Shown here: positions 15,988 to 56,380 of the stretch, in pieces
How the letters are laid out: each line of letters begins with the position of its first letter
Numbering within the stretch: the stretch's first letter is position 1
Assembly (NCBI GenBank): GCA_964187785.1
Contig: OZ076409.1
Location: 45,200,001 to 45,264,000, forward strand
Reading direction: 5' to 3'
DNA: 64,000 bases
From: Amphiscolops sp. MND2022
Taxonomy: Eukaryota
Notes under the pieces: model-generated
The model's input: only the letters and a program-made list of their open reading frames with translations
Told to the model about the DNA's origin: nothing
Databases searched by the model: none
Translations under genes and position numbers: made by a program

Positions 15988-17550
15988 CTAATGAAATAGA
16001 GAAGAAGCGTTAACTGTTGCAGAGTCAGATTGAGGTTGAGTTTCGCTGGAACTGCAACTAATTGTGCAATTGGAAACATTGGTAGACTCTAATGTTGATG
16101 GTACGAATAATCTAACAGGTGCTGCCGCTGCTATTGCACTGTTTGATAAATTGCTGCTTGCTGCGTTCGTTGAAGCGGACCCACTACTGGGCGCCGCGTT
16201 CATTGATGATGCGGACACAACCACCACTGATGGACTGCTCACGCCCATCCTTTCAGAGCTCTCTGATGGCATAGTGGACGTCACCGCAGCAGAGTTGGTT
16301 ACACTGATAGGAACTGACCATGATGACATCGGAGGCTGATAACCCGGGTATACCAAACGGATGGGATTTCTCAACGCGTTTATCTGTCCTACCAGAGACG
16401 CATTCTCATGAGGACAGTCATTGCTTTTCTGCTGAAAAAAATCATACACCAGCTTGAGAGGGTTGCCTAAACCAACAGGTCCCCCGCTGTTGTTGTATGG
16501 ACCATTGATGATAGGTAGACCAGCGGGGCTTGAAGATGAAGGCGTCATGTTTGGAAAAACCCGCGTTCGAGAACCATCATTTGTGGGTGTTGTGTTGTTG
16601 TTCATATCGAGAAGCCCTGGTTTGTTATTACCCGTGTTGGAGTTCGAGCTGTATTTCCGACGTCTGGTATCTGTAGAGCCTCGCACATTTTGGCTACCTC
16701 GATTCATGTTTCTGTTGTAAGCACCAGCCGGATTAGCATTGTTGTTATTGCCACGTTTGACTGCATTATTGTTGTGAGGATGATAAACAGGACCAGTATT
16801 GCTATGGAAGCCTTTCGGTGGCCTCCTTTCATGTGATTTTAAGGTTGTGTTGGGACTACACAAAGTTTCATTCAAGTCATCGATACGGCAATTACCATAG
16901 CTATGACCTTCACCGCCACAGTTAGAACAACACTCACGCTTCGCTCTAACATAGTCATCGTAATTGACAGGTTCGCCGTTAACAGTGAGAAAAAAACGTC
17001 TCCAGTTTTCGGGACAAAAAGCTTTTTCATGGCCCATATTAGAGCACCTGTAACATTGGGATTTCAATTGGTGGCGTTTCGGACATTCGTTGTGAGAATG
17101 TCCGCTTTCCAGACAAACTGGACAAAGCTTGTAGGGACATTGGTTGTGATCAGTATGTTCATGGGAACAACAATTGGCACATATCCTTCGTCGAGCACCG
17201 TCTGCAGGGGTTATTCTTGGACAGTCTCGTGATAGATGCCCATAACATTTACAGTATTCACAGCATACGGGTATAACAGGATAGATATCGTTATTCACTA
17301 GAGAAACTTTTCCCTCCACGTTAACATTACCATTAAAATTGGTACTCAAGGGGAAATGTCTTGTTCCGGGGTTTTCATGCTCAAAATTCTTCACACCTTC
17401 ATTTTCCAAAACAAACCATGATATCATATCAACATTTTCTTTATCATCGTCGTCATTGGCATCGAATCCGACTTGAGCCATGAAAAATGAAGAATTATTG
17501 CTGGGACCTTTCAAGTTCTTACCAGACTCATTTCCAATTGAGTCACCCAT
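15988..17550 (-). CDS. ZCCHC7: Zinc-knuckle protein of the ZCCHC7/Air1-Air2 family (TRAMP RNA-binding subunit); may have further 5' exons
   Basis: Intact 520-aa ORF with five CCHC knuckles. CPENWRRFFLT follows knuckle 4, matching the IWRxY linker of Air/ZCCHC7. It has an N/S-rich low-complexity tail, an in-frame TTTCAG acceptor 15 nt upstream of the ATG, and AATAAA downstream. Confidence 0.8.
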   Translation of the reverse strand: MGDSIGNESGKNLKGPSNNSSFFMAQVGFDANDDDDKENVDMISWFVLENEGVKNFEHENPGTRHFPLSTNFNGNVNVEGKVSLVNNDIYPVIPVCCEYCKCYGHLSRDCPRITPADGARRRICANCCSHEHTDHNQCPYKLCPVCLESGHSHNECPKRHQLKSQCYRCSNMGHEKAFCPENWRRFFLTVNGEPVNYDDYVRAKRECCSNCGGEGHSYGNCRIDDLNETLCSPNTTLKSHERRPPKGFHSNTGPVYHPHNNNAVKRGNNNNANPAGAYNRNMNRGSQNVRGSTDTRRRKYSSNSNTGNNKPGLLDMNNNTTPTNDGSRTRVFPNMTPSSSSPAGLPIINGPYNNSGGPVGLGNPLKLVYDFFQQKSNDCPHENASLVGQINALRNPIRLVYPGYQPPMSSWSVPISVTNSAAVTSTMPSESSERMGVSSPSVVVVSASSMNAAPSSGSASTNAASSNLSNSAIAAAAPVRLFVPSTLESTNVSNCTISCSSSETQPQSDSATVNASSLFH

Positions 17551-20456
17551 GCATAGATGCTTCCCCTGAAATTACGACCAGCGTGCCCAACAAAAAGTAT
17601 AACTTTTGAAATGAAAACAGCGACATCAATCCAATTTCTTAAATATGAAGTCGGTGGCGACATTAAGAAATAGGGTTTCCAGTCATCTAGAGATATTCAA
17701 GAAGTAAAAGCATCAAATTTTGTAAAGGATGACTTCATATAAGGATGTCTCCAATATCGATCCCATGAAAATATCAAAGTAACGCGTAAAATATTCGAAT
17801 GCACTTTCATGATAAATGGTGAGTTCATTCATATCTCAAATTGAGTTTCCGTTGGTATACAAGAGGAAGATGGGTGAAAAAGATTTCATTGTTAGTCGAG
17901 ACGATTAGCATTTCAAACATTTTCTTTAACGCAAGATTTTCTCTGAACTCAAAATCTTTCCTTGCCAATCATTCCGACCTTCATGGAGTGAAAATGTCAC
18001 TTTTATGTCGCACATTGATGGGTAGAACTTGCACCCCTCAAGGACTACATATAATACTAGCTAATCTGCCTAATTAGTCTATGCTTTTGAAAAGTTAAAT
18101 TCTTTGTTGACAAATATTTTCGCATTTAGGTGAATACTTGAACACTTAGGTCACGTCAAGTCGCTATTTTCGACCAATAACTAAAACATGCCAATCATGC
18201 CTTAAAAGCCGTAACACTATACTTATGCGCTAAGCTATGTGTTGCGTAATATTTGTCATCAATTTATCAACAACTGCTTTGAAATGAGAGTTTGAGCCTG
18301 TCAATCAATCAATATGGAAAAAACTTGATTGAATTGACGTATAGATTATAGATCATAAATGGGGCTGAAACGACAGGTTCTTTTGGCTCAACAATAGTTG
18401 CGACAACTTTAGAAGTTTTGTTACGTAACTAAATGTCTAGTTTGAGCGATGGTGCGGATAATAGCAAAACGGGACTCACGACGATTAGCATTCCATGATA
18501 CCACCAAAATTAGCGACGACACGACGCTTACTAGTAAAAGTTTAGGTTTCATATGCAGAAACATTACATTTCAATACTTGAAAAATTTGCGAAAACAATT
18601 GGCTTTTTTGAATAGATTGATTTCAATTTTTCTTATATCGCAATTCGGTGATTACTAAAAACGTTTACCATTGTCGACCACTTTCTATAGTTAGGGGTAA
18701 AAACCCGACGTTGACGTCCACTATCGCAGATTCAAGGGCAAATTTTCGTACCACCGGCTGTTCTTAAAACTTTTTAATCGACGATCAATTTTCCTGACAA
18801 TATGTCAAAGAAATATCAAACAGAAAATGCAGTGTGGTCTCGCCTCATTACTGTCTCAGCCATAAACTGGCGACACTCTCTTATTGATTTTTTTGGAATC
18901 GAAAAAGATGGTGCATGATAGAATATAATTCCGAAATCACCGAGACTTCAGAATTTCTAATGACAACTTTTGGTAACTTGAATCACCGATCTGTGAAAAA
19001 TGTAGTCACCAAACCGGAAATTTCCACAATTGGTTGTATAAATTCGCCCGGGGATTGCAAGTCGATAAATTTTTCGACTGGCCAGCGAATCACCGCCTCC
19101 ACCCCAAAGGTTGTCGACTTTTGTTGAAGTATTTCTGAAGCAAAGCGCCTATCCATACCTCAAAACTGCTAACATCAACAGACACCAAATTATCCGTAAT
19201 TGATATAAAATGTCGTTTCAAATGAACAAAATTGCAAATGATTGACAATTGGTTTGAAATTATATTACTGTTCTCACGACCAGATGTTTAGTCACCATTG
19301 GCTCTGAAGTAACAAGATGAGAACGTCTCAAGTCGGTGCCACGTTCCAAAATAACTGAATCTTTCAAATAGGCTAAAAAGCTGTGACTATGAAAGTTTTG
19401 AAAAATCTCACATTGCCGAAAGCCACCTTTTCGGCATTTCCTGACTGGAAACAAAAATAAAGGGCGACCATTAGGTAAAACTTGAAAATAAAAGTGCCGA
19501 AAGAAAAACAGAAAAAGGGGGCTTAACACTTTTTTGTTTCGGTGATGCGAAAATGACGGAAATTTAAAGGACAGAGAATATAGCCTCTGTTAGTACTCTT
19601 TAGTTCTTAGGCTAGAAGCGTATCCGTTTCGCCACATTTGCGTCGTTTCGTCGCATTCGTGTCTGCCTTAACAAATAAAATGACTAATAGTCTGGCGAAT
19701 AACTAACTAGTTCAAGCAAACTAACTTGTTTCGTGGACAATTTTGCACCCACGTTTCATACATGTTTCAATGTAACCACAGACGAAACCGCACCCGGGTC
19801 AATTGGTATATCACATAAGATTCAAGAAAAAAACTAAGTTTTTTGCATGACAATATCTGTTTTTCATGCTGTTTATAAAAGTTGGACTGTTCAGGTCTAT
19901 TTCATGGTAACCTTTTCACCCGAGTTTTTTGGTTTCACTTTACTCAAGCCTTCACATTTTAGTTTCCCGAACTAGAGATGTAAAAAAATTACAACTGCGC
20001 AATAGTGGCTCATAGGATTCCATCTCTCAATGAAGCTTGATTTAGAAGAAATTGTGCGGAACAATTTTCAGCAGTTAATTCTGACTCTTTGCGATCGAAA
20101 TTTTTGGCATTTTGGGAATAACTTCTGAAGAAAGGACGTCTGAAAACTAATGTTTCAAGATATGAAATGAGCATGGCATGGCTTAAGACGTTATTCCTTC
20201 ACCCACAATTATTGTTACTAGCAAACCCTTCTCTCTGAAGGACAACAATCTTGCACTTCTGAAGTAACATCTTGGGTTTTGATTTGCGGTAAACGGTTAC
20301 AAAAAGACTCAATTTTATGTTTAAAAATTCAATTATCAAAATCTTCCATATACAAAACATTGTCTATAGAAACGTTTGAATTATCATCTACATCGGTGTC
20401 ATGTGAAAAAAACTTGTCATCACTTTTGCCAACTCGAAACGTTGGAGGTACTTGTT

Positions 20457-20935
20457 GAATGATCGTTGATCCCGAAGACCTTTGAAAGATCTTTGATCTC
20501 GCTTATCTGAAGATCCTCGAATGAGGATTAATCTCGAAAATCTTCCGAATACTCTTGAATGACCATTGATGTCGGAGATCTTCCAAAAATCCTTGAAAGA
20601 TCTTTGATCTCGAAGATCTTTGAATGATCTTCGATCTCGAAGATCTTTATCTTTCGAAGACTCTTGAATGATCTCTGATCTCGAAGATCTCCCGAAGAAC
20701 CTTGAATGATCTTTGAATTCGAAGGTCTTCCGGAGATCCTTGAATGATCTTTGATATCGAAGATCTTCCGAGAGTCTTTGAATGATAATTGATCTCGAAG
20801 ATCGTCCGAAAGTTCTTGAATGATTTTCCATCTCGGAGATCTTCCGATGATCTTTGATATCGAAGATCTTCCGAAAGTCCTTGAATGATAATTGACCTCG
20901 AAGATCTTCCGAAGATCCTGGCATGGTATTTGATC
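20457..20935. repeat. Short array of the 38-bp GATC/TCGA satellite (segment A1)
   Basis: Variants of TCGAAGATCTTCCGAAGATCCTTGAATGATCTTTGATC; duplicate at ~49200-49678. Confidence 0.9.
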
Positions 20936-21728
20936 TTCTCAAGGTCACTTTTTTCAGGAATATCTTTTGATTGACATACCATTTTTTAAAAGATCTTTCG
21001 ATTGTTACGTAATTTACTGTCAAGGTTGATTGGCTCTCTGATATTTGATCAGCAGTCAATTTTTAGAAAGAACTATTTTGAAGAGAACGATCCATAATAT
21101 GATATAACACTCTTCCCAAAAGTTTACGCTAGTAGTAAAAGTATATATGATCAATAAACTTCACTCAAAAAAATCTTCCCATTCATCTCAATTGTAAAAC
21201 TAGAAATCATAATTCGTTTCACAATTTAACAAATTTAGTAAATACGTTATTCTAGACGAGGGGTCAGTTAAATCTGTGAATGACAAACACATCACTAAAA
21301 TTACCATGACCGTCACTACTTTGTGAAAAATTTCAACCTAGGGACAAAATTTTAGAAACTACTAAATACTGTACTACTACGAAAACAATATTGAAAATCA
21401 ATTTGAAACGCTTCCAACGTCTAAAACATTAGCATAAAATCTAAAACAAAAACCCTTATCTACGGATTGTCGCGAAAGGAACTAAAAATAATAGGATGTG
21501 AAAGGATCACAGGGTTGAGTCAGTAGTTTTTCTTTAAAACTCATTATGAAAAGTTCAAGTTCATGAAATACACACTCAAAATCACTCAAATTGAAAAATA
21601 CAGCAATGTAATAAGCCACGTTCAAATGCCCTTGGTTTAGAAAACTCACTTTGACCTAACTATCTGACTCCACGGCATTAACAATGGTGACTTCCCATAG
21701 CTCCGAAAGCAAAATCGAGTGCCATAAC

Positions 21729-23154
21729 CAGGGGTCCGCAATTATTAATTGCAATTAAATTGGCATTTAAAATTTTAAAAACCAATTAATTGAAAATTGG
21801 ACACTTCATGAAACAATTATTGCAATAATTGGCAAATCAAAACAACAGTTGTCAATGCATAAATTCAGACAAAATTGATGAAAATTTGCCCAAAAATAAT
21901 GAACTCAAAGAGTCATTCAGTAGCGTTGACGACTTCGTTGACGAGACTCAGGTCCCACAGTCTCTTGTTCGACATCAGAAACAGCTGCTGCTCCAGATAA
22001 ATAGGTTGTATCTTCCGTCGCAAGTCATCATAAGCATATCCAGCCCGGCTGAAAAGTCTCTCCATCAAGTTCGACGTGGGAACCAGAAATCTGCAGTCCA
22101 AATATTTATCTGACCGCCGCTCGCATCTTCTCTTCCTCAGAATTTCCATGGCAAAATCCAAGGGCACTTCATTCTCCTTCCCCATCTCTTCAACTTCTTG
22201 GACATGAAGCCGCAATTTTTTCACGGCCAAGTTCTCTTGCAAAGTCAGATTCTCATCAGAGTTCAATATTTTTACGACGCCATTCTCGAAGTCTTTGTTT
22301 TTCACAATGCTACTATTGACATGAATATACTTCTTGCGACCATCGATTGACACCTTTTTGATGATTTCATCTAGCAGAAGGCGTGCACTTGCCATATCCA
22401 TGTCTGAGCGCTGAAGGGCAAGAGTAACCGATTTCAAGGGCTCCAAAAGCTCGCCGAGTTCTTTGAGACGAGCATCTTCCGCGGGGCATAGCATGAAGGA
22501 TATCATTGCTGGTATATGCTGTAGGTGATCTTTGATCTTCATGTATCTCTCAATCATTTGCATAACACTGAGCCAACGTGTAGTGTTATTGACAATAGGT
22601 GTTATTGGCGATCTCTTTCTCAACCCGATCAGAAACAAGGTGCATGTACTTCTCAAGGGTGTGAACAGAGATTTTATCCAACGACGAATATTTGCGTGTT
22701 AGGCTACTCTCCACAAATGAAAATGGCTTTAGTTCCATACACACCCATTCCAACCATCCGTATACAGTTTCACTCTTTCGACAATGCATAAATCGAAGCG
22801 TCTGCTGATCCGAAATAGATGTATTGTCGTTTCCATGTTGAGAACGGATATGTTGCATTAGGTTAGACCAGCCTGTACCATCTTTCCTTTTTAGAAGTTT
22901 TCCACAGTGGCACTTGTAAACATCATTCTCTAGTTTAGTGAAATACTTCTTCGTTAAAGCCTTGTAGTCTTTTGGCGCTTCAACTTTAGATGTCATTTCA
23001 AACCTGAAAAAGATAATGCATTGCGCTCAATCAATTATTGCAATAATTGGCTTGTTAATTTCCAATAATTGAAAAATGCAAGATGGGAAAATCAAATAAT
23101 TGATCAATTATAATTGCAATTATTGCTTCATCAATTTTTAATTGCGGACCCCTG
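21729..23154 (-). mobile_element. hAT transposon, internally deleted; transposase frameshifted in this copy
   Basis: Perfect 16-bp TIRs CAGGGGTCCGCAATTA and 8-bp TSD GCCATAAC, with an empty site at ~33799. Encodes a BED finger, a TRW motif and PTSNLMERLFS. Confidence 0.95.
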
Positions 23155-24211: not shown

Positions 24212-24550
24212 GGGTGGGCGGAAATAGGTCGAAGGAACGGGATCGAAAATCAGAGTTAGTCCTCAGGTCGACATACCAAATTTTTGAATGGGATCGAGAC
24301 AACTCGGATCGAAATTTTTATAACGTAGTCAGATATGTTCACATACCCCTAGTGCCCTGAATGCAGGAGCGAAGCGACGTGCCATATGGCCATGCCTCAA
24401 TGTTGCTACTTGGCGAAGAGAGCGAAGCGACCACGCCATACAACAAATACGATAAAATTCGACCGCATTCCATTCGATCCCTGCAATTCGATCAAAAGGT
24501 TCGACCTCTGTCCTTTCGACCAGAAAAAATCGACCTATTTACTGCCACCC
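24212..24550. mobile_element. MITE family G (GGGTGG...CCACCC termini), insertion a
   Basis: Inverted termini with TCGA-rich subterminal motifs. TSD (C)CCTTTGAT; empty site at ~34615; duplicate at 52959-53297. Confidence 0.9.
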
Positions 24551-24778
24551 CCTTTGATATGTGCTTTGATATTTGCCGTCTAGTGAAAACTTGCTTTTAT
24601 AGAAAAGCGTTTTGATCTGCGAAAAAAACGACAATTGGTGTCCAGAGCAGAATACAATTCAAGGGCTTCGGGCAATAAGTTCGATTTACTAAGTTCGAAT
24701 TTGAACTAGTGCAATAAGTTCGAATGGAATAGTTTCGAGACACCAAGTTCGAATTTTCAAATCGGGCATATCCGGTGT

Positions 24779-25128
24779 GGGTGGGCGGAAATAGGTCGAA
24801 GGAACGGGATCGAAATTCAGAGTTAGTCCTCAGGTCGACAATACCAAATTTTTGAATGGGATCGAAACAACTCGGATCGAAATTTTTATAACGTAGTCAG
24901 ATATGTTCACATACCCCTAGTGCCCTGAATGCAGGAGCGAAGCAAAGCGGAGCGACGTGCCATATGGCCATGCCTCAATGTTGCTACTTGGCGAAGGGAG
25001 CGAAGCGACCGAGCCATACAACAAATACGATAAAATTCGACCGCATTCCATTCGATCCCTGTAATTCGATCAAAAGGTTCGACCTCAGTCCTTTCGACCA
25101 GAAAAATTCGACCTATTTACAGCCACCC
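24779..25128. mobile_element. MITE family G, insertion b (nested in T-a)
   Basis: 9-bp TSD ATCCGGTGT; empty site seen in T-b at ~27194; duplicate at 53526-53875. Confidence 0.92.
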
Positions 25129-25173
25129 ATCCGGTGTAAACTGGACATCATTCACACAAGAACCTGAGAGCTC

Positions 25174-25730
25174 GGTTACCAGTCACTTGGCTTAATACCA
25201 TTTGGCTTAATTTTTTCGTCGAGTCATTTGGCTTAAAAATTTTAAGCCAAGTGACCACAAAATTAGGCCAACTCCATTCCAACTCAAGGAATAAATATGT
25301 CAACTCCCGGAAATATCATAATGTGGGGCATATGCGGTGTATGCACGCTCGCCCTCACCGTCGCAAAGACAAGCTCCAACTACGATCGGTTCGCGATCTC
25401 CGTTCCCGCTAGGTCTTTGCTCCTGTTCTACCTCGCTCAGCAAGATGGGAACATAAGCGGCCCCAAGGGGCCGCAGGGCACTAGAGGAAATTGGGACATA
25501 TCCGAGGGGTACTTGATATGACACGTTATAATAATACGCTGACTACGTTTTAAAGATCAATTCGACAAAATCGGCCACGTGTTTCCAACTAAGTGGTTTT
25601 AAGTCAAATGACTTTAAGTCAAGTGACCAATACCCGAGACACTTAGCTTAAAAAAATTAAGCCAAGTGACCAATTGTATTAAGCCAAATGACTTAAAGCC
25701 AAATGGCATGAAGCCAAGTGACCATTTACC
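25174..25730. mobile_element. MITE family A (AAGCCAAGTGAC subterminal repeats, GG termini; Merlin/MULE-like), nested in T-a
   Basis: Ends GGTTACCAGTCACTTGGCTT and AAGCCAAGTGACCATTTACC. 8-bp TSD GAGAGCTC; empty site at ~27231; duplicate at 53921-54477. Confidence 0.92.
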
Positions 25731-26201
25731 GAGAGCTCCACCGCCTAGGATCTACAGGATTCTGAAAACTGAAATGCGGGGCATACCCGGTGTATGAACG
25801 CTCGCCCTCACCGTCGCAAAGACGAGGTCCCACTACGATCGCTTCGCGATCTCCGTTCCCGCTAAGTCTTTGCTCCTGTTCGACCTCGCTTAGCAAGATG
25901 GGAACATAAGCGGCCCCAAGGGGCCGCGGGGCACTAGATGAAATGGGGTAATATCAGTGGCACGTTTCATACTTAGTTCAAAATTCGTACACAGTGATTC
26001 GAACTTGTTCCGGTTTTTGGAAAATTCGAACTTAGTCCATTCGAAATTAAAATTCGAACTTATGGGTTCGAACTTTTTACCGTGCCCCATTTCAATGTTA
26101 GCATGCTTAAAAGTATCGCTGCCAGTTCCTTGTTCAACTCAATTGAAGAACTTCAAATCAGTTTGCGTAAACAACTACGAGGACTCGTCCATGCCGGTCC
26201 C

Positions 26202-26741
26202 GAATTCCGGACGTTTCGGCAAAAGACGTTTCGGCGAAAACATGGCAACGGACGTTTCGGCAAAAAAAATATGCCGAAACGTCTCAGGCTAAAAACATTT
26301 GCCGAAACGTTTCGTATGATGTGTGGGGCATATCCGGTGTATGCACGCTCGCCCTGACCGTCGCAAAGACCAGCTCCCACTACGATCGCTTCGCGATCTC
26401 CGTTCCCGCTAGGTCTTTGCTCCTGTTCGACCTCGCTTAGCAAGATGGGATAATATGCGGCCCCAAGGGGCCGCGGGGCACTAGAGGAATGGGATATATC
26501 CGAGGCACGTTTTATGCTTTGCATCATTCCTACATTAATGGTCTTATCGTTTTTCTTTCAATTTTTTCTTCAATTCCACAATTCTACAAACTGGTATTCT
26601 ACAAACTGGACCTAACCAGTTTGTAGAAAATCAAAAACATAACCAAGATAATACGAGACGTTTCGGCGTGAAAAATTTCGGCGCCCGAAACGTTTCGAAG
26701 TTTTTTTTGCCGAAACGTCTTTGCCGAAACGTCCTGTTCCC
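26202..26741. mobile_element. MITE family C (CCGAAACGTTTCGG subterminal repeats)
   Basis: Ends GAATTCCGGACGTTTCGGC and GCCGAAACGTCCTGTTCCC. 8-bp TSD CCGGTCCC; empty site at ~34826; duplicate at 54949-55487. Confidence 0.9.
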
Positions 26742-27087
26742 CCGGTCCCGGTTCCAGCCTGAACCCAGAGTCCGTGAACAAATCAAAAGACGTTTACAAC
26801 TATCTAAAGTCCGAAGAACTGAAAAATACGAGAATAACCCTGTGGCACAATCTGATTAATAATACTATCACACCCCACAAAAGTAATAACTATCAACCGC
26901 AAAGTGTAAATCAGCTTGCGGCTTCATTGAGAAGTCTCACAAACTTATGCGACATAGTTTATTGTCAACGTACAGGGTCCCCGAATATCTTTGAAGACCT
27001 GAGAACATTGGACTGCCCAATCATCCAAGTCACGACAGATATTTTGATCAAGTCAGAGCAGCGCACTGAAGTACTCATCGAGAAATA

Positions 27088-27596
27088 GCCTTCGGGCAAT
27101 AAGTTCGATTTACTAAGTTCGAATTTGAACTAGTGCAATGAGTTCGAATGGAATAGTTCCGAAACACCAAGTTCGAACTTCCATATCGGGCATATCCAGT
27201 GTAAACTGGACATCCTTCACACAAGATCCTGAGAGCTCCACCGCCTAGGATTTAAAGGAATCTAAAAACTGAAATGTGGGGCATATCCGGTGTATGCACG
27301 CTCGCCCTCACCATCGCAAAGACCAGCTCCCTCTACGATCGCTTCGCGATCTCCGTTCCCGCTAGGTCTTTGCTCCTGTTCGACCTCGCTTAGCAAGATG
27401 GGAACATAAGCGGCCCCAAGGGGCCGCGGGGCACTAGATGAAATGGGGAAATATCAGAGGCACGGTTTATACTTACGGTGGTTAGTTCAAAAATCGAACA
27501 CAGTGATTCGAACTTGTTCCGGTATTTGGATTATTCGAACTCAGTCCATTCGAAATTTAAATTCTAACTTATGCGTTCGAACTTATTACCGTGCCC
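27088..27596. mobile_element. MITE family T, insertion b (uninterrupted, 509 bp)
   Basis: 9-bp TSD CGAGAAATA; empty site at ~35162; duplicate at 55834-56342. Confidence 0.92.
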
Positions 27597-27634
27597 CGAG
27601 AAATACAAAGCCTTACATCATTCCAGCGAATAAT

Positions 27635-30600
27635 CTTTGATCCCGAAGATCTTCTGAAGACCTTTTAAAGATCTTTGACCTCGCTTATCTGAAGATCCTC
27701 GAATGAGGATTGATCTCGAAGATCTTCCAAATATTCTTGAATGACCTTTGATGTCGGAGATTTTCCGAAAATCCTTGAAAGATCTTTGATCTCGAAGATC
27801 TTCCGAAGAACCTTGAATGATATTTGAATTCGAATTCCTTGCTTAGATCTTTTAATGACTTTCAATCTCGACGATCCTCCGAATATCTTCGATTTCGAAA
27901 ATCTTTCGAAGATTCTTGAATGATCTCTGATATTGAAGATCTTCCGAAGGTCATTGAATGATCTTTGATCTCGAAGATCCTTGAATGATCTTTGATATCG
28001 AAGACCTCGGGAAGGCCCTTGAAAGATCTTTGAATGATCTTCGAACTCGAAGGTCTTCCAAAGATCCTTGAATGATATTTGACCTAGAAGCTCTTCCGAA
28101 GATCCTTAATGATCTCTGGTCTCGGAGAACGTCCGAAAATTCTTGAATGATAATTGATCCCGAAGATCGTCCGAAAGTTCTTGAGTGATTTTCCGTCTCG
28201 GAGATCTTTCGATGATTGTTGATCTCGAAGATCTTCCGAAGATCCTTGAATGATCTGTGTAATGGAAGATCTGCTGAAGGTCCTTGATCCCGAAGATCTC
28301 CCGAAGAACCTTGAATGATCTTTGAATTCGAAGGTCTTCCGGAGATCCTTGAATGATCTTTGATATCGAAGATCTTCCGAGAGTCTTTGAATGATAATTG
28401 ATCTCAAAGATCGTCCGAAAGTTCTTGAATGATTTTCCATCTCCGACAATTTTTGGAGGATCTTCGATCTCGAAGATCTTCTGAAAGTCCTTGAACGATC
28501 TTCGACCTCGAAGATCGTCTGAAGATCCTGTAATGATTTTTGATCTCGAATCCTTGCTTAGATCTTTTAATGACTTTCGATCTCGACGATCCTCCGAATA
28601 TCTTCGATCTCGAAAATCTTTCGAAGATTCTTGAATGATCTCTGATATTGAAGATCTTCCGAAGGTCATTGAATGATCTTTGATCTCGAATTCCTTGAAT
28701 GATCTTTGATATCCAAGACCTCGGGAAGGCCCTTGAAAGATCTTTGAATGATCTTCGAACTCGAAGGTCTTCCAAAGATCCTTGAATGATATTTGACCTA
28801 GAAGCTCTTCCGAAGATCCTTAATGATCTCTGGTCTCGGAGAACGTCCGAAAATTCTTGAATGATAATTGATCTCGAAGATCGTCCGAAAGTTCTTGAAT
28901 GATTTTCCATCTCCGACAATCTTTGGAGGATCTTCGATCTCGAAGATCTTCTGAAAGTCCTCGAACGATCTTCGACCTCGAAGGTCGTCTGAAGATCCTG
29001 TAATGATTTTCGATCTGGAATCCTTGCTTAGATCTTTTAATGACTCTCGATCTCGACGATCCTCCGAATATCTTCGATCTCGAAAATCTTTCGAAGATTC
29101 TTGAATGATCTCTGATATTGAAGATCTTCCGAAGGTCTTTGAATGATCTTTGATCTCGAAGATCCTTGAATGATCTTTGATATCGAAGACCTCGAGAAGG
29201 CCCTTGAAAGATCTTTGAATGACCTTCGAACTCGAAGGTCTTCCAAAGATCCTTGAATGATATTTGACCTAGAAGCTCTTCCGAAGATCCTTGAATGATC
29301 TCTGGTCTCGGAGAACGTCCGAAAGTTCTTGAAGGATAATTGATCCCGAAGATCGTCCGAAAGTTCTTGAATGATTTTCCATCTCGGAGATCTTCCGATG
29401 ATCTTTGATCTCGAAGATCTTCCAAAGATCCTTGAATGATCTTCGTCCTCGAAGATCGTCTGAAGATCCTGGAATGAGTTTCGATCTCGAATCCTTGCTT
29501 AGATCTTTTAATGACTTTCGATCTCGACGATCCTCCGAATATCTTCGATCTCGAAATCTTTCGAAGATTCTTGAATGATCTCTGATATTGAAGATCTTCC
29601 AAAGGTCTTTGAATGATCTTTGATCTCGAAGATCCTTGAATGATATTTGACCTAGAAGCTCTTCCGAAAATCCTTGAATGATCTCTGGTCTCGGAGAACG
29701 TCCGAAAGTTCTTGAAGGATAATTGATCCCGAAGATCGTCCGAAAAACCTTGAATGATTCTCCATCTCGGAGATCTTCCGATGATCGTTGCTCTCGAAGA
29801 TCTTCCGAAGATCCTTGAATGATCTTCGACCTCGAAGATCGTCTGAAGATCCTGGAATGATTTTCGATCTCGAATTCCTTGCTTAGACCTTTTAATGACT
29901 TTCGATCACGACGATCCTCCGAATATCGTCGATTTCGAAAATCTTTCGAAGATTCTTGAATGATCTCTGATATTGAAGATCTTCCGAAGGTCATTGAATG
30001 ATCTTTGATCTCGAAATCCTTGAATGATCTTTGATATCGAAGACCTCGGGAAGGCCCTTGAAAGATCTTTGAATGATCTTCGAACTCGAAGGTCTTCCAA
30101 AGATCCTTGAATGATATTTGACCTAGAAGCTCTTCCGAAGATCCTTAATGATCTCTGGTCTCGGAGAACGTCCGAAAATTCTTGAATGATAATTGATCTC
30201 GAAGATCGTCCGAAAGTTCTTGAATGATTTTCCATCTCCGACAATCTTTGGAGGATCTTCGCTCTCGAAGATCTTCTGAAAGTCCTTGAACGATCTTCGA
30301 CCTCGAAGATCGTCTGAAGATCCTGTGATGATTTTCGATCTGGAATCCTTGCTTAGATCTTTTAATGACTCTCGATCTCGACGATCCTCCGAATATCTTC
30401 GATCTCGAAAATCTTTCGAAGATTCTTGAATGATCTCTGATATTGAAGATCTTCCGAAGGTCTTTGAATGATCTTTGATCTCGAAGATCCTTGAATGATC
30501 TTTGATATCGAAGACATCGAGAAGGCCCTTGAAAGATCTTTGAATGACCTTCGAACTCGAAGGTCTTCCTAAGATCCTTGAATGATATTTGACCTAGAAG

Positions 30601-32965
30601 CTCTTCCGAAGATCCTTGAATGATCTCTGGTCTCGGAGAACGTCCGAAAGTTCTTGAAGGATAATTGATCCCGAAGATCGTCCGAAAGGTCTTGATTGAT
30701 TTTCCATCTCGGAGATCTTCCGATGATCTTTGATCTCGAAGATCTTCCAAAGATCCTTGAATGATCTTCGTCCTCGAAGATCGTCTGAAGATCCTGGAAT
30801 GAGTTTCGATCTCGAATTCCTTGCTTAGACCTTTTAATGACTTTCGATCACGACGATCCTCCGAATATCTTCGATTTCAAAAAATTTTCGAAGATTCTTG
30901 AAAGATCTCTGATTTTGAAGATCTTCCGAAGGTCATTGAATGATCTTTGATCTCGAAGATCCTCGAATTTTTGATATCGAAGACCTCAGGAAGGCCCTTG
31001 AAAGATCTTTGAATGATCTTCGAACTCGAAGGTCTTCCAAAGATCCTTGAATGATATTTGACCTAGAAGCTCTTCCGAAGATCCTTGAATGATCTCTGGT
31101 CTCGGAGAACGTCCGAAAATTCTTGAATGATGATTGATCCCGAAGATCGTCCGAAAGTTCTTGAATGATTTTCCATCTCGGAGATCTTCCGATGATCGTT
31201 GCTCTCGAAGATCTTCCGAAGATCCTTGAATGATCTTCGACCTCGAAGATCGTCTGAAGATCCTGGAATGATTTTCGATCTCGAATTCCTTGCTTAGACC
31301 TTTTAATGAATTTCGATCACGACGATCCTCCGAATATCGTCGATTTCGAAAATCTTTCGAAGATTCTTGAATGATCTCTGATATTGAAGATCTTCCGAAG
31401 GTCCTTGAATGATCTTTGATCTCGAAATCCTTGAATGATCTTTGATATCGAAGACCTCGGGAAGCCCTTGAAAGATCTTTGAATGATCTTCGAACTCGAA
31501 GGTCTTCCAAAGATCCTTGAATGATATTTGACCTAGAAGCTCTTCCGAAGATCCTTAATGATCTTTGGTCTCGGAGAACGTCCGAAAATTCTTGAATGAT
31601 GATTGATCCCGAAGATCGTCCGAAGGTTCTTGAATGATTTTCCATCTCGGAGATCTTCCGATGATCGTTGCTCTCGAAGATCTTCCGAAGATCCTTGAAT
31701 GATCTTCGACCTCGAAGATCGTCTGAAGATCCTGGAATGATTTTCGATCTCGAATTCCTTGCTTAGACCTTTTAATGACTTTCGATCACGACGATCCTCC
31801 GAATATCGTCGATTTCGAAAATCTTTCGAAGATTCTTGAATGATCTCTGATATTGAAGATCTTCCGAAGGTCCTTGAATGATCTTTGATCTCGAAGATCC
31901 TTGAATGATCTTTGATATCGAAGACCTCGAGAAGGCCCTTGAAAGATCTTTGAATGACCTTCGAACTCGAAGGTCTTCCTAAGATCCTTGAATGATATTT
32001 GACCTAGAAGCTCTTCCGAAGATCCTTGAATGATCTCTGGTCTCGGAGAACGTCCGAAAGTTCTTGAAGGATAATTGATCCCGAAGATCGTCCGAAAGTT
32101 CTTGAATGATTTTCCATCTCGGAGATCTTCCGATGATCTTTGATCTCGAAGATCTTCCAAAGATCCTTGAATGATCTTCGTCCTCGAAGATCGTCTGAAG
32201 ATCCTGGAATGAGTTTCGATCTCGAATTCCTTGCTTAGACCTTTTAATGACTTTCGATCACGACGATCCTCCGAATATCTTCGATTTCAAAAAATTTTCG
32301 AAGATTCTTGAAAGATCTCTGATATTGAAGATCTTCCGAAGGTCATTGAATGTTCTTTGATCTCGAAGATTCTCGAATTTTTGATATCGAAGACCTCGGG
32401 AAGGCCCTTGAAAGATCTTTGAATGATCTTCGAACTCGAAGGTCTTCCAAAGATCCTTGAATGATATTTGACCTAGAAGCTCTTCCGGAGATCCTTGAAT
32501 GATCTCTGGTCTCGGAGAACGTCCGAAAGTTCTTGAATGATTTTCCATCTCGGAGATCTTCCGATGATCGTTGCTCTCGAAGATCTTCCGAAGATCCTTG
32601 AATGATCTGTGTAATGGAAGATCTGCTGAAGGTCCTTGATCCCGAAGATCTTCCGAAGATCCTCGAATGATCTCTGATCTCGAAGATTTCCCGAAGAACC
32701 TTGAATGATCTTTGAATTCGAAGGTCTTCCGGAGATCCTTGAATGATCTTTGATATCGAAGATCTTCCGAGAGTCTTTGAATGATAATTGATCTCGAAGA
32801 TCGTCCGAAAGTTCTTGAATGATTTTCCATCTCGGAGATCTTCCGATGATCTTTGATCTCGAAGATCTTCCAAAGATCCTTGAATGATCTTCGTCCTCGA
32901 AGATCGTCTGAAGATCCAGGAATGGTATTTGATCTCAAAGATCTTCCGAAGATCCTTGAATGACA
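27635..32965. repeat. Long satellite array: 38-bp monomer in ~470-bp higher-order repeats (~5.3 kb)
   Basis: Landmark GACCTAGAAGCTC at 28081, 28795, 29266, 29649, 30120, 30591, 31060, 31530, 32001 and 32470. Confidence 0.95.
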
Positions 32966-34734
32966 ACTTCAGCAGTATTTCTTCCGATTTGATATGAGCA
33001 GTCTAGTTCTTTCTCAAGGTCACTTTTTTCAAAAATACCTTTTGATTGACATACCAATTTTTAAAAGTTCTATCGATTGTTACGTAGTTTACTGTCGAGG
33101 TTGATTGGCTCTCTGATAATCTTTCATCAGCAGTCAAATTTTAGAGAGAACTATTTTGAAGAGCACGATCCATAATATGATATACCACTCTTCCCGAAAC
33201 TTTACGCTAGTAGTAAAAGTATATATGATCGATAAACTTCACTCACAAAATTCTTCCCATTCGTCTCAATTGTAAAACTAGAATCATATTTCGTCTCTCA
33301 ATTTATTAACAAATTTGGTAAATACGTTATTCTAGACGAAGGGTCAATTAAATCTGTGAATGACAAACAGATCACTAAAATTACCTTGACCGTCACTACT
33401 TTGTGAAAAATTTCAACCCAGCGACAAAACTTTAGAAACTCCTAAAAACTGTACTACTACAAAAACAATATTAGAATACAACTTGAAACGCTTCAGACGT
33501 CTAAAACATTATCATAAAATTTTAAAAAAGCCCTTATCTACGGATTGTCGCGAAAGGAACTATAAATTAATAGGATGTGAAAGGATCAGAGAGTTGAGTC
33601 AGTAGTTTTTCTTCAAAACTCAACATTAAAAATTCAAGTTCTTGAAATACACTTTCAAAATCATTCAACTTGAAAAATAAGCAATGTAATAAGCCACGTT
33701 CAAATGCCTTTGGTTTAAAAATCTCACTTTGACCTAACTATCTGACTCCACGGCATTAACAATGGTGACTTCCCATAGCTCCGAAAACAAAATCGAGTGC
33801 CATAACTCGGAATATTAATTCTACTTATCTTGGTAAATAATAAGTCTCAGCCCAACAGTGCTAATTTAAATAAAGGCGCTTCTGCAAACTGTTAACTTGA
33901 AGAAATCACTGCGGTAGCTAAGGGAATTGACAGTGCGGGGGACGATGAAAAACAAACAACTTGTCAATAATTTGTCTACTTGCGCAAATTTTACGTGTGA
34001 AAATAATACGCTGGAAATTTCGGAGCTTTGACACTAGATTTTGAAATCGGAGCTATGAGTAGTCACCATCAACAATAACAGTGCTAACACACTTATTGTA
34101 GAGCTTCTGCGGAAACCGCAAAGGTCACAGTTAATCATTCATGTAGATTATTTTCTGCGATGTTTTTTAGCTGGTAAGGAATGAGTGAAGACATAGCACA
34201 TTACACATAGCCCTTGATTCCCTTCATCACGGCAATTGTTTCTAGCACAATCACAGCCATTGGTGTTCAAGAAACAATTATGGGTAAATGAAATTATTTT
34301 TACACTCAAATGTATGAAAATATTTAATTTTGGAGCTGTTAAAATGAAAATAAATATTTTTGAGATAAATAAAACTAAGAGCCTTTAATTCAACATACCG
34401 TCAGCCAATTGAATTCAAAAATAGCAATCTTGAGCTAATTTCTAGAAATACCTTTGTCAAGTACCTTGGACTACTGACTCAAAAGGTACAAGAGTGCAAT
34501 ACAGAAGCCCCGTCGCCGCTTTTTGGCCTGATTATGATGTGTTTACTGATTAATGCCTTTAATATATATTGCTGTAATTGACACATGTTTACATATATTT
34601 GAGATGACGATGTCCCTTTGATATGTGCTGTGATATTTGCCGTCTAGTGAAAACTAGCTTTTATAGAAAAGCGTTTTGATCTGCGAGAAACACGACAATT
34701 GTTGTCCAGACCAGTATACATTTCAAGGTTAGCA

Positions 34735-35327
34735 AGCTTAAAAATTATTGCTGCCAGTTCCTTGTTCGTTTCAATTGAAGAACTTCAAATCAGTGTGCGT
34801 AAACAACTACGAGAACTCGTCCACGCCGGTCCCGGTTTCAGCCTGAATCCAGAGTCCGTGAACAAGTCAAAAGACGTTTACAACTATCAAAAGTCCGAAG
34901 AATTGGAAAATACGAGAATAATCCTGTGGCACGATCTGATTAACAAGACTATCACACCCCACAAAAGAAATAACTATCAACTGCAAAGTGTATATCAACT
35001 TGTGGCTTCATTGAAAAGTCTCACAAACTAATGCGGCATATTTTATTGTCAACATAGAGGGTCCCCGAAAGTCTTTGAAGACCTGAGAACATTGGACTGC
35101 CAATCATCCAAGTCACGACAGATGTTTTGAGCAAGTCATAGCAGCGCATTGAAGTACTCGTCGAGAAATACAAAGCCTTACATCAATCGAGCGATCTCCA
35201 ACTCAGATCCCTAGGTGTAGTCCTAAAATATTGTCCGAACCTGAAGCAGATCTTGAAAATAAGAGGCACCAAGCGAAGAACTCACGAGCAACTAAGAGAG
35301 GCTAAGAGAAAAAGAGAAGACAACTAA
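34735..35327 (+). pseudogene. Full-length but disrupted paralog of the unknown ~197-aa ORF
   Basis: KIIAASSLF...IILWHDLINKTI...YKALHQS...KRKREDN*, with two stops and a frameshift; duplicate at ~62335-62927. Confidence 0.5.
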
Positions 35328-38325: not shown

Positions 38326-39507
38326 CACTCTTGTTTGTAGCTACCGAACTAACACGTAGTTTGTACATGCAAAAGTGAACGCTTGATTTGCGCGCTAATT
38401 AAACACCCGCTGAAAACATTGACAAACATTTCATCAGCCATGTTCATTGCGTTTCAAACGCTCAGTCTTTGAATTCACGTATTCTGAAAGAATTGAAAGA
38501 TTGGGTCCGAGGAAAACCAGTGGTAAAATCAGAAAAAAAGTCATTCAGAAATTCCTTCAAAACTTTTCTGAATCGAAAATTTCGAAAGACTTTTTAGTCT
38601 CAAAAACTTCTGTGCATCGTATTTTTGTGGCGTACAACAAAGACGACAGGATTGAACGCAAGAAAGGACCAGGCAGAGCACCGAAAACTACCGAAAAATC
38701 GAAAAATATTCTTAGACGCCTCTCAGTAATGTGTCCTAAACTTACATCTGAGCTGCTCAAAAACGACTGGGCAGATGGATACAAATATCACGCCAGTAGT
38801 ATTAGAAGAAGTTTGTTGAAATATGGGCTTTTCAGGAGAAGGGGTGCCAGAAAACCTCTTTTGACCAAGAAACAGATTTCAACTTGTCTCAAATGGTGCA
38901 ACAAAAAAGGAAAAATTACGATGTTTTACTGGAAGAAAGTGATATACAGCGATGAGACCAGAATAGAGATACGAGCCAGTCGCATACATTTGTCACAAAA
39001 ACAAAAGTCTCAAATTATCGGTACAATCATAAATACCTCACCTCAAAAGTACTGGGCAAACAAAAATCGACCAGCTATTCCAACAGGACAATGCCCCATG
39101 CCATAAATCGTCCAAAATTTTATCCTTCTTTGAAAAAGAGGGAATTGCTCTACTCCCAGACTGGCCAGCTAGGTCCCCGGGCTTTACTATCATCGAGAAT
39201 TGGTGGGACTATTGGAACACACTAGTAGCAAAACATAACATTTCAAATCTCTAAGAATTTTCGACAATTGTTCAACAAAAACTTTTCAAAATTCCGGACA
39301 GTTTAATCGAGAATTTGTTTGATTCAATCCCAAGAAGAATTGATGCCGTTATCAAGAACAAAAGCCTTCTGATACGATACTGAAAACTCTTCCAAACTTG
39401 GTACGTTACCGTTTCATAAATATTACTAACATAGTTTTCTTAAAACTGTTGTAACTCTTATACCTAGGGCATTCTTACAACTGGTTCGGTTACTACAAAC
39501 AAAGTTG
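38326..39507 (+). mobile_element. Tc1-family relic, duplicate
   Basis: Copy-2 equivalent of 9685-10866. Confidence 0.9.
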
Positions 39508-51899: not shown

Positions 51900-52958
51900 G
51901 CCATAACTGGGAATATTAATTCTACTTATCTTGGTAAATAATAAGTCTCAGCCCAACAGTGCTAATTTAAATAAAGGCGCTTCCGCAAACTGTTAACTTG
52001 AAGAAATCACTGCGGCAGCTAAGGGCATTGACAGTGCGGGGGAAGATGAAAAACAAACAACTTGTCAATAATTTGCCCACTTGCGCGAATTTTAAGTGTG
52101 AAAATACGCTGGAAATTCGGAGCTATGACACTAGATTTTGAATTCGGAGCTATGAGTAGTCACCATTAATAACAGTGCTAACACACTTATTGTAGCTTCT
52201 GCGGAAACCGCAAAGGTCACAGTTGATCATTCATGTAGATTATTTTCTGCGATGTTTTTTTAGCTGGTAAGGAATGAGTGAAGACATAGCACAGGACACA
52301 TAGCCCTTGATTCCCTTCATCACGGCAATTGTTTCTAGTACAATCACAGCCAGGGGTGTTCAATAAATATTTATGGGTAAATGAATGTATTTTTACACTC
52401 AAATGAATATAAATATTTGTTTTTGGACCTGTTAAAATGAAAATAAATATTATATATATATATATATATATATTGATCTTCGGGGTGCTCCTTTTTGCGA
52501 GCCAGTACCATCGAGGATGTAGGATATAATGCTTATGGTTCGTGTTTGGGGCGTGCAAATCGTTCCGTCTGCTTGATGAATAGCGGGAGCTGTGAGTTTA
52601 ACATGGATTCGGCGAGGTTTCCAAAGTTGAATTCACTCCGGATTTCTTCGTATCTGGGACTTTCTAATATGAAGTGGTGAACAGATTCTACAAATAAATA
52701 TTCTTGAGATAATTAAAACTAAGAGCGTTTAACTCAACATATCGTCAGCCAATTAAATTCAAAAAGAGTAATCTTGAGCTAATTTCCAGAAATACCTTTG
52801 TCAAGTACCTTGGACTACTGACTCAAAAGGTTGAAGAGTCCATTACAAAAGCCCTGTCGCCGCCTTTTGGCCTGATTATGATGTGTATACTGATTTATGC
52901 CATTATAAATTGCTGTAATTATTATATGTTTTATTTTAGATGTCGATGTCCCTTTGAT

Positions 52959-55900
52959 GGGTGGGCGGAAATAGGTCGAAGGAACGGGATCGAAAATCAG
53001 AGTTAGTCCTCAGGTCGACATACCAAATTTTTGAATGGGATCGAGACAACTCGGATCGAAATTTTTATAACGTAGTCAGATATGTTCACATACCCCTAGT
53101 GCCCTGAATGCAGGAGCGAAGCGACGTGCCATATGGCCATGCCTCAATGTTGCTACTTGGCGAAGAGAGCGAAGCGACCACGCCATACAACAAATACGAT
53201 AAAATTCGACCGCATTCCATTCGATCCCTGCAATTCGATCAAAAGGTTCGACCTCTGTCCTTTCGACCAGAAAAAATTGACCTATTTACTGCCACCCCCT
53301 TTGATATGTGCTTTGATATTTGCCGTCTAGTGAAAACTTGCTTTTATAGAAAAGCGTTTTGATCTGCGAGAAAAACGACAATTGGTGTCCAGAGCAGAAT
53401 ACAATTCAAGGGCTTCGGGCAATAAGTTCGATTTACTAAGTTCGAATTTGAACTAGTGCAATAAGTTCGAATGGAATAGTTTCGAGACACCAAGTTCGAA
53501 TTTTCAAATCGGGCATATCCGGTGTGGGTGGGCGGAAATAGGTCGAAGGAACGGGATCGAAATTCAGAGTTAGTCCTCAGGTCGACAATACCAAATTTTT
53601 GAATGGGATCGAAACAACTCGGATCGAAATTTTTATAACGTAGTCAGATATGTTCACATACCCCTAGTGCCCTGAATGCAGGAGCGAAGCGAAGCGGAGC
53701 GACGTGCCATATGGCCATGCCTCAATGTTGCTACTTGGCGAAGGGAGCGAAGCGACCGAGCCATACAACAAATACGATAAAATTCGACCGCATTCCATTC
53801 GATCCCTGTAATTCGATCAAAAGGTTCGACATCAGTCCTTTCGACCAGAAAAATTCGACCTATTTACAGCCACCCATCCGGTGTAAACTGGACATCATTC
53901 ACACAAGAACCTGAGAGCTCGGTTACCAGTCACTTGGCTTAATACCATTTGGCTTAATTTTTTCGTCGAGTCATTTGGCTTAAAAATTTTAAGCCAAGTG
54001 ACCACAAAATTAGGCCAACTCCATTCCAACTCAAGGAATAAATATGTCAACTCCCGGAAATATCATAATGTGGGGCATATGCGGTGTATGCACGCTCGCC
54101 CTCACCGTCGCAAAGACAAGCTCCAACTACGATCGGTTCGCGATCTCCGTTCCCGCTAGGTCTTTGCTCCTGTTCTACCTCGCTCAGCAAGATGGGAACA
54201 TAAGCGGCCCCAAGGGGCCGCAGGGCACTAGAGGAAATTGGGACATATCCGAGGGGTACTTGATATGACACGTTATAATAATACGCTGACTACGTTTTAA
54301 AGATCAATTCGACAAAATCGGCCACGTGTTTCCAACTAAGTGGTTTTAAGTCAAATGACTTTAAGTCAAGTGACCAATACCCGAGACACTTAGCTTAAAA
54401 AAATTAAGCCAAGTGACCAATTGTATTAAGCCAAATGACTTAAAGCCAAATGGCATGAAGCCAAGTGACCATTTACCGAGAGCTCCACCGCCTAGGATCT
54501 ACAGGATTCTGAAAACTGAAATGCGGGGCATACCCGGTGTATGAACGCTCGCCCTCACCGTCGCAAAGACCAGGTCCCACTACGATCGCTTCGCGATCTC
54601 CGTTCCCGCTAAGTCTTTGCTCCTGTTCGACCTCGCTTAGCAAGATGGGAACATAAGCGGCCCCAAGGGGCCGCGGGGCACTAGATGAAATGGGGTAATA
54701 TCAGTGGCACGTTTCATACTTAGTTCAAAATTCGTACACAGTGATTCGAACTTGTTCCGGTTTTTGGAAAATTCGAACTTAGTCCATTCGAAATTAAAAT
54801 TCGAACTTATGGGTTCGAACTTTTTACCGTGCCCCATTTCAATGTTAGCATGCTTAAAATTATCGCTGCCAGTTCCTTGTTCAACTCAATTGAAGAACTT
54901 CAAATCAGTTTGCGTAAACAACTACGAGGACTCGTCCATGCCGGTCCCGAATTCCGGACGTTTCGGCAAAAGACGTTTCGGCAAAAACATGGCAACGGAC
55001 GTTTCGGCAAAAAAATATGCCGAAACGTCTCAGGCTAAAAACATTTGCCGAAACGTTTCGTATGATGTGTGGGGCATATCCGGTGTATGCACGCTCGCCC
55101 TGACCGTCGCAAAGACCAGCTCCCACTACGATCGCTTCGCGATCTCCGTTCCCGCTAGGTCTTTGCTCCTGTTCGACCTCGCTTAGCAAGATGGGATAAT
55201 ATGCGGCCCCAAGGGGCCGCGGGGCACTAGAGGAATGGGATATATCCGAGGCACGTTTTATGCTTTGCATCATTCCTACATTAATGGTCTTATCGTTTTT
55301 CTTTCAATTTTTTCTTCAATTCCACAATTCTACAAACTGGTATTCTACAAACTGGACCTAACCAGTTTGTAGAAAATCAAAAACATAACCAAGATAATAC
55401 GAGACGTTTCGGCGTGAAAAATTTCGGCGCCCGAAACGTTTCGAAGTTTTTTTTGCCGAAACGTCTTTGCCGAAACGTCCTGTTCCCCCGGTCCCGGTTC
55501 CAGCCTGAACCCAGAGTCCGTGAACAAATCAAAAGACGTTTACAACTATCTAAAGTCCGAAGAACTGAAAAATACGAGAATAACCCTGTGGCACAATCTG
55601 ATTAATAATACTATCACACCCCACAAAAGTAATAACTATCAACCGCAAAGTGTAAATCAGCTTGCGGCTTCATTGAGAAGTCTCACAAACTTATGCGACA
55701 TAGTTTATTGTCAACGTACAGGGTCCCCGAATATCTTTGAAGACCTGAGAACATTGGACTGCCCAATCATCCAAGTCACGACAGATATTTTGATCAAGTC
55801 AGAGCAGCGCACTGAAGTACTCATCGAGAAATAGCCTTCGGGCAATAAGTTCGATTTACTAAGTTCGAATTTGAACTAGTGCAATGAGTTCGAATGGAAT

Positions 55901-56342
55901 AGTTCCGAAACACCAAGTTCGAACTTCCATATCGGGCATATCCAGTGTAAACTGGACATCCTTCACACAAGATCCTGAGAGCTCCACCGCCTAGGATTTA
56001 AAGGAATCTAAAAACTGAAATGTGGGGCATATCCGGTGTATGCACGCTCGCCCTCACCATCGCAAAGACCAGCTCCCTCTACGATCGCTTCGCGATCTCC
56101 GTTCCCGCTAGGTCTTTGCTCCTGTTCGACCTCGCTTAGCAAGATGGGAACATAAGCGGCCCCAAGGGGCCGCGGGGCACTAGATGAAATGGGGAAATAT
56201 CAGAGGCACGGTTTATACTTACGGCGGTTAGTTCAAAAATCGAACACAGTGATTCGAACTTGTTCCGGTATTTGGATTATTCGAACTCAGTCCATTCGAA
56301 ATTTAAATTCTAACTTATGCGTTCGAACTTATTACCGTGCCC
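52959..56342. mobile_element. Duplicate of the nested MITE cluster
   Basis: The same six insertions as 24212-27596, at offset 28746-28747. Confidence 0.92.
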
Positions 56343-56380
56343 CGCGAAATACAAAGCCTTACATCATTCCAGCGAATAAT

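Follow-up and report, generated by a model that had tools for sequence, protein, structure and literature searches.

How does one block of DNA come to lie in the middle of transposons whose arms do not align with one another? The question is raised by a nest of MITEs in the window, a 64,000-nucleotide stretch of the genome of Amphiscolops sp. MND2022 on the contig labelled C1 of a 1.07-Gb assembly. As reported in a preliminary description of this DNA, near-identical 164-bp blocks are present at 25321-25484, 25774-25937, 26321-26484 and 27274-27437, all in one orientation and with a pairwise identity of 92.7-95.7%. That description assigned them to three MITE families (A, T and C) with different ends and independent TSDs, and both ends and TSDs (8 bp for A, 8 bp for C, 9 bp and, with one mismatch, 8 bp for T) are borne out here. 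The features of the nest are given below, where core-1 is the block with its conserved continuation and core-2 a sister sequence.

24212..24549, minus strand: second family B MITE, 9-bp TSD; core-2 at ~24319-24444
24663..26087, plus strand: family T MITE, 8-bp TSD with 1 mismatch; own core-1 at 25774-~25970; B and A elements nested within its left half
24779..25128, minus strand: family B MITE, 9-bp TSD; sister core-2 at ~24887-25022
25174..25730, plus strand: family A MITE, 8-bp TSD; core-1 at 25321-~25510; nested inside the T element 24663..26087
26202..26741, plus strand: family C MITE, 8-bp TSD; core-1 at 26321-~26516
27088..27596, plus strand: family T MULE-like MITE, 9-bp TSD; core-1; empty site near 35165
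27274..27470, plus strand: core-1 of this T element, ~200 bp, comprising the 164-bp block and the conserved tail
27274..27290, plus strand: box copy 1, a ~16-bp direct repeat
27398..27413, plus strand: box copy 2
27443..27458, plus strand: box copy 3, right after CTAG; end homologous to the core-2 tail
34348..35170, plus strand: paralogous host stretch that lacks the insertions, with the empty sites of B, T, C and T
52958..56343, plus strand: second copy of the entire MITE nest, within a ~28.7-kb segmental duplication

The empty sites at 34348-35170, found for the two T copies, for C and for B, each hold the TSD only once, and therefore arms and core were inserted as units. The set of four blocks recurs at 54068-56183 in the ~28.7-kb duplicate. 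The duplication is a tandem one (window 7418-36062 and 36059-63644, 92-99% identity) that includes the MITE nest. A satellite of 38-bp units, which has a higher-order repeat of ~470 bp and long open frames on the minus strand, occupies 27628-32964, 56374-60564, 20509-20936 and 49252-49679. A 527-codon open frame (15988-17571 and 44731-46314, both on the minus strand) encodes several CCHC zinc knuckles and an Asn/Ser-rich tail, and has two relatives (59% and 43%). Transposase-like frames at 21913-23026 (minus), 50656-51771 (minus), 9782-10492 (plus) and 38423-39106 (plus) were read by eye as hAT-type and Tc1/mariner-type. The window also holds a coreless foldback element (4379-4961) with 17-bp subterminal repeats, an AT-rich interior and a 9-bp TSD.

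A 28-mer from the 3' end of the block has 1,696 exact matches in the assembly and its reversed control none. Six core-1 copies were found in eighty evenly spaced 10-kb stretches (800 kb), and the genome total is roughly 8,000, with a wide error because copies cluster. The block of 164 bp is real, but the extent given in the preliminary description is too short, as the shared sequence extends ~30-35 bp beyond CTAG: inspection by eye of the first 30 matches to the 28-mer on C1 showed the conserved tail continuing past CTAG in all of them, giving a core length of ~200 bp. A motif from this tail has 803 matches, and the first 30, also examined by eye, all have a whole or partial core upstream. The base following the 28-mer is A in 1,662 of the 1,696 matches and another base in 34 (T in 11). 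Copies not followed by A kept the tail in 27 of the 30 fetched, including all 10 T-followers fetched. Neither free copies of core-1 nor empty sites were found among 60 sampled matches (30 from the 28-mer, 30 from the tail motif), and all 60, sampled from a non-exhaustive genome search, lie in a MITE context. Since the tail is kept and a core lies upstream in the copies sampled, core-1 is a module that shows no insertion signature of a Helitron or SINE. A SINE or Helitron found mostly free, with such a signature of its own, is what the preliminary description had named as the finding that would speak against a portable module.

No TSD of its own was found for the block, as described before, but three direct ~16-bp copies of a box had been overlooked. 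They lie at the start of core-1, at about nt 125 and after CTAG, and the two internal matches to the tail were equalled by 13/1000 and 0/1000 shuffles. As the box occurs three times and also in core-2, these repeats are not a TSD. Both cores have a GC content of 59-60% (60% for core-1, computed over 164 bp), compared with 39.5% in the 800-kb sample and 37-45% in the arms. Apart from a FLYWCH start, no Pfam family was detected in reading frames that run through the core. Phage records gave no match and plasmids one chance-level match (E 0.2), and patterns of the shared motifs were absent from the scanned metagenome and viral contigs. Three sequencing runs each yielded 2 low-depth contigs over the core only, which were not taken as evidence of host range or expression.

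Families A, T and C do carry the block, yet the carriers are far from being limited to these three. At least 12 end types have two or more TSD-bounded core-1 copies each, i.e. A, C (with variants C2-C4), D, E, F, G, H, I, J, K, T and B', and others were encountered a single time or lacked a clean TSD. All carriers have G-rich ends, 7-9 asymmetric bases, tandem subterminal repeats, inverted arms and 8-9 bp TSDs, a design matching that of transposase-coding MULEs fetched from the same genome. Their TSDs fall within the 8-10 bp that define a non-autonomous MULE or foldback MITE, and empty sites are present too. The termini had been called unrelated; the arms of A, C and T indeed do not align (best match 14 nt, E 0.03), but all are of one MULE design, and there are related end types among them (A with D; C, C2 and C3; J with the L114 type). 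Inverted repeats bound 32 stretches in the 800-kb sample, of which 3 held a core, and none of the 32 had a core between ends of another TIR superfamily, in a census that missed family B. Nearest-end scoring gave a TSD for 53 of 84 elements, an underestimate, since D is wrongly scored as D/A and the scoring halts at repeats inside H and A. The host is likely an acoel worm, the best named matches to the mitochondrial COX1 of the assembly being acoel (Symsagittifera roscoffensis 75%, Baltalimania 73%) and those of other animals reaching about 65% or less. The available text of PMC6451197 describes another acoel genome in which MULEs, at 5.7%, make up the largest class of DNA transposons. In a different TIR element family (L284:5760-6580 and L286:1350-2050), copies contain all or part of a tRNA-like repeat, which is probably a nested SINE.

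Among TSD-bounded elements chosen by their ends, core-1 is present in 21/21 of A and 13/13 of C, and among all ends in 29/30 of A and 25/30 of C. Consensus cores of most well-sampled family pairs differ at 0-6 of 164 nt, no more than copies within a family; those of A, C and T differ by 1-4 nt and the outliers C3 and O by 15-31 nt. In 82 TSD-bounded copies, the ratio of rare to lineage-fixed alleles is 68:2 in the centre (nt 31-125) and 81:27 elsewhere (p=4.5e-5), with rare alleles evenly spread and lineage-fixed ones avoiding the centre (p=0.008 inside the 164 bp alone). Recent gene conversion would equally leave the centre conserved. Every donor has the core in its middle, and arm-to-arm copying therefore carries it along without selection. 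CpG is not hypermutable (0.0067 vs 0.005-0.006). Thirteen internal deletions were seen among 223 cores, none common to independent insertions of one family, in a census that left out copies with a diverged tail such as some of family O. Coreless MULE-like MITEs exist as well (the L236 family, L219, L242, L026/L341, the L056 type and the window element at 4379-4961), and the L236 family has 3 old copies, 77-80% alike, in the 800-kb sample. Some of these were amplified, so the core is dispensable. TSDs are present in an H derivative without the core (L126) and in a C2 element that has lost it by deletion (L079). In the available text of PMC5225508, Muta1 moved elements with unrelated interiors in yeast.

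Core-2, the interior of window family B, has 1,390 exact matches; 9 copies were found in the 800-kb sample, and it has several other arm types too. Aligned end to end, core-1 and the core-2 of L101 score 32.8, where the best of 500 shuffles reached 20.4 (0/500); the family B copy gives a weaker result (3/500 shuffles). The two cores share a 5' motif, TCGC tracts, nine bases ending in CTAG and the box. As judged from these alignments and motifs, core-1 and core-2 are homologous, and both occur in several families. The long stem and the GC hairpin at the terminus are missing from core-2, and its fold is no more stable than those of shuffles (z +0.65 to +2.9). A search for a third core type, a weak test with one exclusion pattern of core-1 spacing, gave 6 matches, all broken core-1 copies. 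An argument from chromatosome length was dropped, core-2 being much shorter.

The origin of the carriers can be followed at several loci. Core-1 was found in none of 30 MULE-transposase loci and core-2 in 2 of the 30, both times as a separate MITE. Both arms of the MITE at L206 match those of the autonomous element at L114 (94.6% over 130 bp and 90.5% over 211 bp). The ~2-kb interior of the latter is replaced in the MITE by the core, preceded by a flank and alleles typical of family E, and the left junction shows a 3-nt microhomology. Likewise, both arms of the core-2 MITE at L250 match the autonomous L097 (87% over 117 bp and 96.8% over 95 bp). The parents L114 and L097 both carry the Pfam MULE family and are both coreless. 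Family H, whose copies are near-identical with 9-bp TSDs, retains 42 codons from the start of an ORF that resembles FLYWCH (E 9e-5, 23.0 bits, just under the cut-off of 23.6), followed in 29/30 copies by a slipped duplication, a 40-bp flank common to another family and then the core. At L035:1176-1481 this truncated ORF runs on without a stop codon across the junction and the greater part of the core, over 102 codons in all. There is no further Pfam match, and the openness through the core is probably due to chance.

The core was captured repeatedly with different junctions, as in H and H' (L048). C and C4 (L158 and L312, two insertions) are separate captures with flanks from family A, and B arms occur with core-2 or with core-1. 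Junctions vary on both sides, and the core is whole from box to box in every amplified family seen. No parents of A, C and T were found among the fetched MULE-transposase loci, and one exclusion pattern gave 0 matches to an autonomous parent of H. According to the available text of PMC3814204, abortive gap repair with template switching leaves such scars, and we infer this route of capture for the present genome. An intermediate of a second route is seen at L101, where the TIR of a transposase-coding MULE harbours a core-2 MITE that has an 8-bp TSD of its own. L098-L101 are tandem copies of this MULE, which has a ~470-codon ORF; of the core-2 MITEs in their TIRs, that of L101 is complete, and those of L098 and L100 are truncated by other sequence. 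A fixed orientation of the core to the parental ORF was considered and rejected, as it is sense in H, L206 and L250 and apparently antisense in the L101 type. The T arms in the window (24764-24778 and 27188-27203) end with an extra copy of the first ~16 bases of the core, after which they switch to the inner flank of another family; this extra box is likely a restart of copying at the box. Taken alone, recurrent capture of the core is very probable. The parent pairs, the repeat captures and the arms derived from separate autonomous MULEs agree with the earlier proposal of a portable module swapped between transposon arms.

MULE-type MITEs also insert into one another. The left flank lies in a core-bearing MITE for 10/30 of C, 5/30 of A, 8/23 of B and 2/29 of H, compared with 20/3000 random positions. 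When both flanks of H were tested, 16/28 sites were in or at other MULE-type MITEs (random 28/3000). Insertions of family H (L121-L150) often lie only a few bases from the tip of another MULE-type MITE, with the TIR of the neighbour usually beginning directly after the right end of H, a pattern suggesting that H is tethered to ends bound by transposase. Hybrids with mixed ends, A/C (L071) and C/A (L024), have no TSD and look like dead recombinants; the missing TSD points to recombination between cores. MITE-into-MITE insertion as such is already described in PMC5172404.

Why the core is kept can be explained in several ways. We give about an even chance to the reading that it is copied in at the birth of each family and retained as a DNA-level, transposase-independent aid to transposition. 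A new MITE family would then consist of the arms of an autonomous MULE, with the ORF replaced by a core copied from resident MITEs, either through template switching in gap repair or by way of a nested insertion and a later deletion. The benefit would act as double-stranded DNA, the core being a putative docking spacer for a host protein or nucleosome that would bring the ends together or keep them accessible. Candidates for docking are the repeated ~16-bp box, the TCGC tracts and the 60% GC between more AT-rich arms. Because the subterminal motifs of the carriers differ, any shared benefit would come from a host factor or a DNA property independent of transposase specificity. In the text available for PMC9921582, GC-richer internal sequence raised the transposition of mPing and nucleosome-assisted pairing of the ends is proposed, while PMC3310237 describes a preference of Pack-MULEs for GC-rich cargo. 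A bolder version, possible but advanced only tentatively, would make the core a genetic element that has no ends of its own and serves as a universal booster whatever the transposase. Each MULE that becomes active would capture it anew, so that it outlives the families, and selection on a repeated protein-binding box would keep the core-1 and core-2 lineages. Alternatively, and with a real though clearly less than even chance, the core is a neutral hitchhiker, the relic interior of an early successful MITE that is copied by default while gene conversion keeps its centre uniform. Since MULEs insert into each other's arms and cores, core-bearing MITEs would be the nearest and most abundant repair templates, and the boxes could be worn transposase-binding repeats supplying microhomology for switching. 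Neutral copying is favoured by the strong nesting of H (16/28), by MITE-into-MITE insertion being known elsewhere (PMC5172404), by the core-2 MITE in the TIR of a coding MULE (L101), a real intermediate, and by the A/C and C/A hybrids; the uniformity of consensus cores, which differ no more than copies within families, and the amplification of coreless families point the same way. However, simple deletion is the usual route to a MITE according to the available text of PMC3814204, yet 0/34 intact A and C elements are coreless, the core is whole from box to box despite the variable junctions, and two old core types kept their end motifs through large internal change.

Retention as a DNA-level aid has further rivals, which fare less well. 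Helitrons have a subterminal GC hairpin or palindrome at the 3' end shortly before CTRR or CTAG, and insert between A and T with unrelated flanks. An 18-bp palindrome ending 6 nt before CTAG, together with direct repeats flanking the block, could thus make the core itself a mobile element, a non-autonomous Helitron or SINE targeting MULE MITEs. This is very improbable: the hairpin-then-CTRR feature is present in core-1, but insertion between A and T with unrelated flanks is absent, A follows almost every copy and the ten fetched T-followers keep the tail. Neither empty sites nor free copies (0/60) were found, the repeats are not a TSD, ARAGORN detected no tRNA in the core, and a tRNA, 5S or 7SL head is as absent as free copies with a variable TSD and simple-repeat tail. 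An ancient Helitron-derived origin of the core is possible. Action by folding or transcription, as a structured small RNA, ribozyme, promoter or ssDNA signal, is unlikely. The preliminary description had emphasized secondary structure, and the three stems it named are in the MFE fold, which is only moderately better than shuffles on both strands (z -1.9 to -2.4); a post hoc count places 0/13 lineage-fixed alleles within the 164 bp in these stems. Against this, 82 copies x 22 pairs (1,804 cells) gave 0 compensatory, 9 tolerated and 40 broken changes, in copies so nearly invariant that the test is not a strong one. Lineage-fixed alleles did not differ significantly between stem and loop (p 0.14-1 across the folding settings tried), core-2, without the long stem and terminal GC hairpin, folds like shuffles, and an Rfam search, which the preliminary description had proposed, gave no family near threshold in the core at permissive E-values and chance miRNA/snoRNA-like matches outside it. 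The absence of compensatory changes, of a stem/loop difference and of an Rfam match, together with a core-2 that folds like shuffles, make the ssDNA replication signal and the structured RNA the weakest functions suggested in that description, of which host-factor docking survives. Lastly, descent of all carriers from one MITE, its arms diverging fast while the core stayed, had been named earlier as the other finding that would undo the portable module. It is hardly credible: A with D, the C group and J with the L114 type are related, yet arms match separate coreless autonomous elements at 87-97%, and the arms of A, C and T are unalignable while their consensus cores are 1-4 nt apart. The parent-derivative pairs refute a single ancestor.

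Two standing questions are why some MITEs reach thousands of copies and where interiors unmatched to their parents originate. Here, the steps of birth are visible as parent, donor flank, junction scar and repeat capture. One interior naturally paired with a dozen arm types also offers a clean system for separating internal DNA from transposase in MITE success. If the core aids transposition, vectors based on DNA transposons would gain a portable enhancer, and selection would have a new level beneath that of the transposon family. If it is neutral, the system still shows how one sequence is carried to unrelated ends by MITE-into-MITE targeting, and it warns that core-sharing families will be merged or mislabelled in repeat annotation.

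Foldback MULEs, filler capture, nested MITEs and internal enhancers are already known. For one non-coding module of two old lineages that a dozen MULE families have picked up anew and that their parents lack, no precedent was found in the open-access literature, a scope outside which Dfam, Repbase, subscription journals and supplements lie. The CORE, V and Deu SINE superfamilies combine a conserved middle with exchangeable, partner-specific ends. The present core resembles them in its conserved middle, but those are retroposons, whereas this core belongs to a cut-and-paste system with very recent exchange. A GC palindrome before CTAG recalls the 3' terminus of a Helitron, from which the core differs in having no following T, no free copies and a conserved sequence running past CTAG. 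As described in the available text of PMC9921582, the internal sequences of Stowaway Ost35 and mPing are similar in that a gain in mobility is proposed via GC content, possibly with nucleosomes; those regions are family-specific with a measured effect, whereas the core is common to families with different binding motifs and its effect is proposed. As in the Pack-MULEs and filler capture of PMC3814204 and PMC3310237, as far as their available text goes, a parental ORF is replaced by ectopic DNA with GC-rich cargo, leaving microhomology and slippage scars. Unlike in Pack-MULEs, the cargo appears to be one non-coding module that passes from MITE to MITE and is recaptured, rather than a host gene fragment. 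Closest in design are the Muta1-type foldback MULE derivatives of Aedes aegypti, which, in the available text of PMC5225508 and PMC5499845, also have 8-9 bp TSDs, a short terminal motif, tandem subterminal repeats, parents with FLYWCH and MULE transposase, and interiors that are not parental. However, the interiors of the Muta1 derivatives are heterogeneous, while the many families described here have come to carry one or the other of two related cores.
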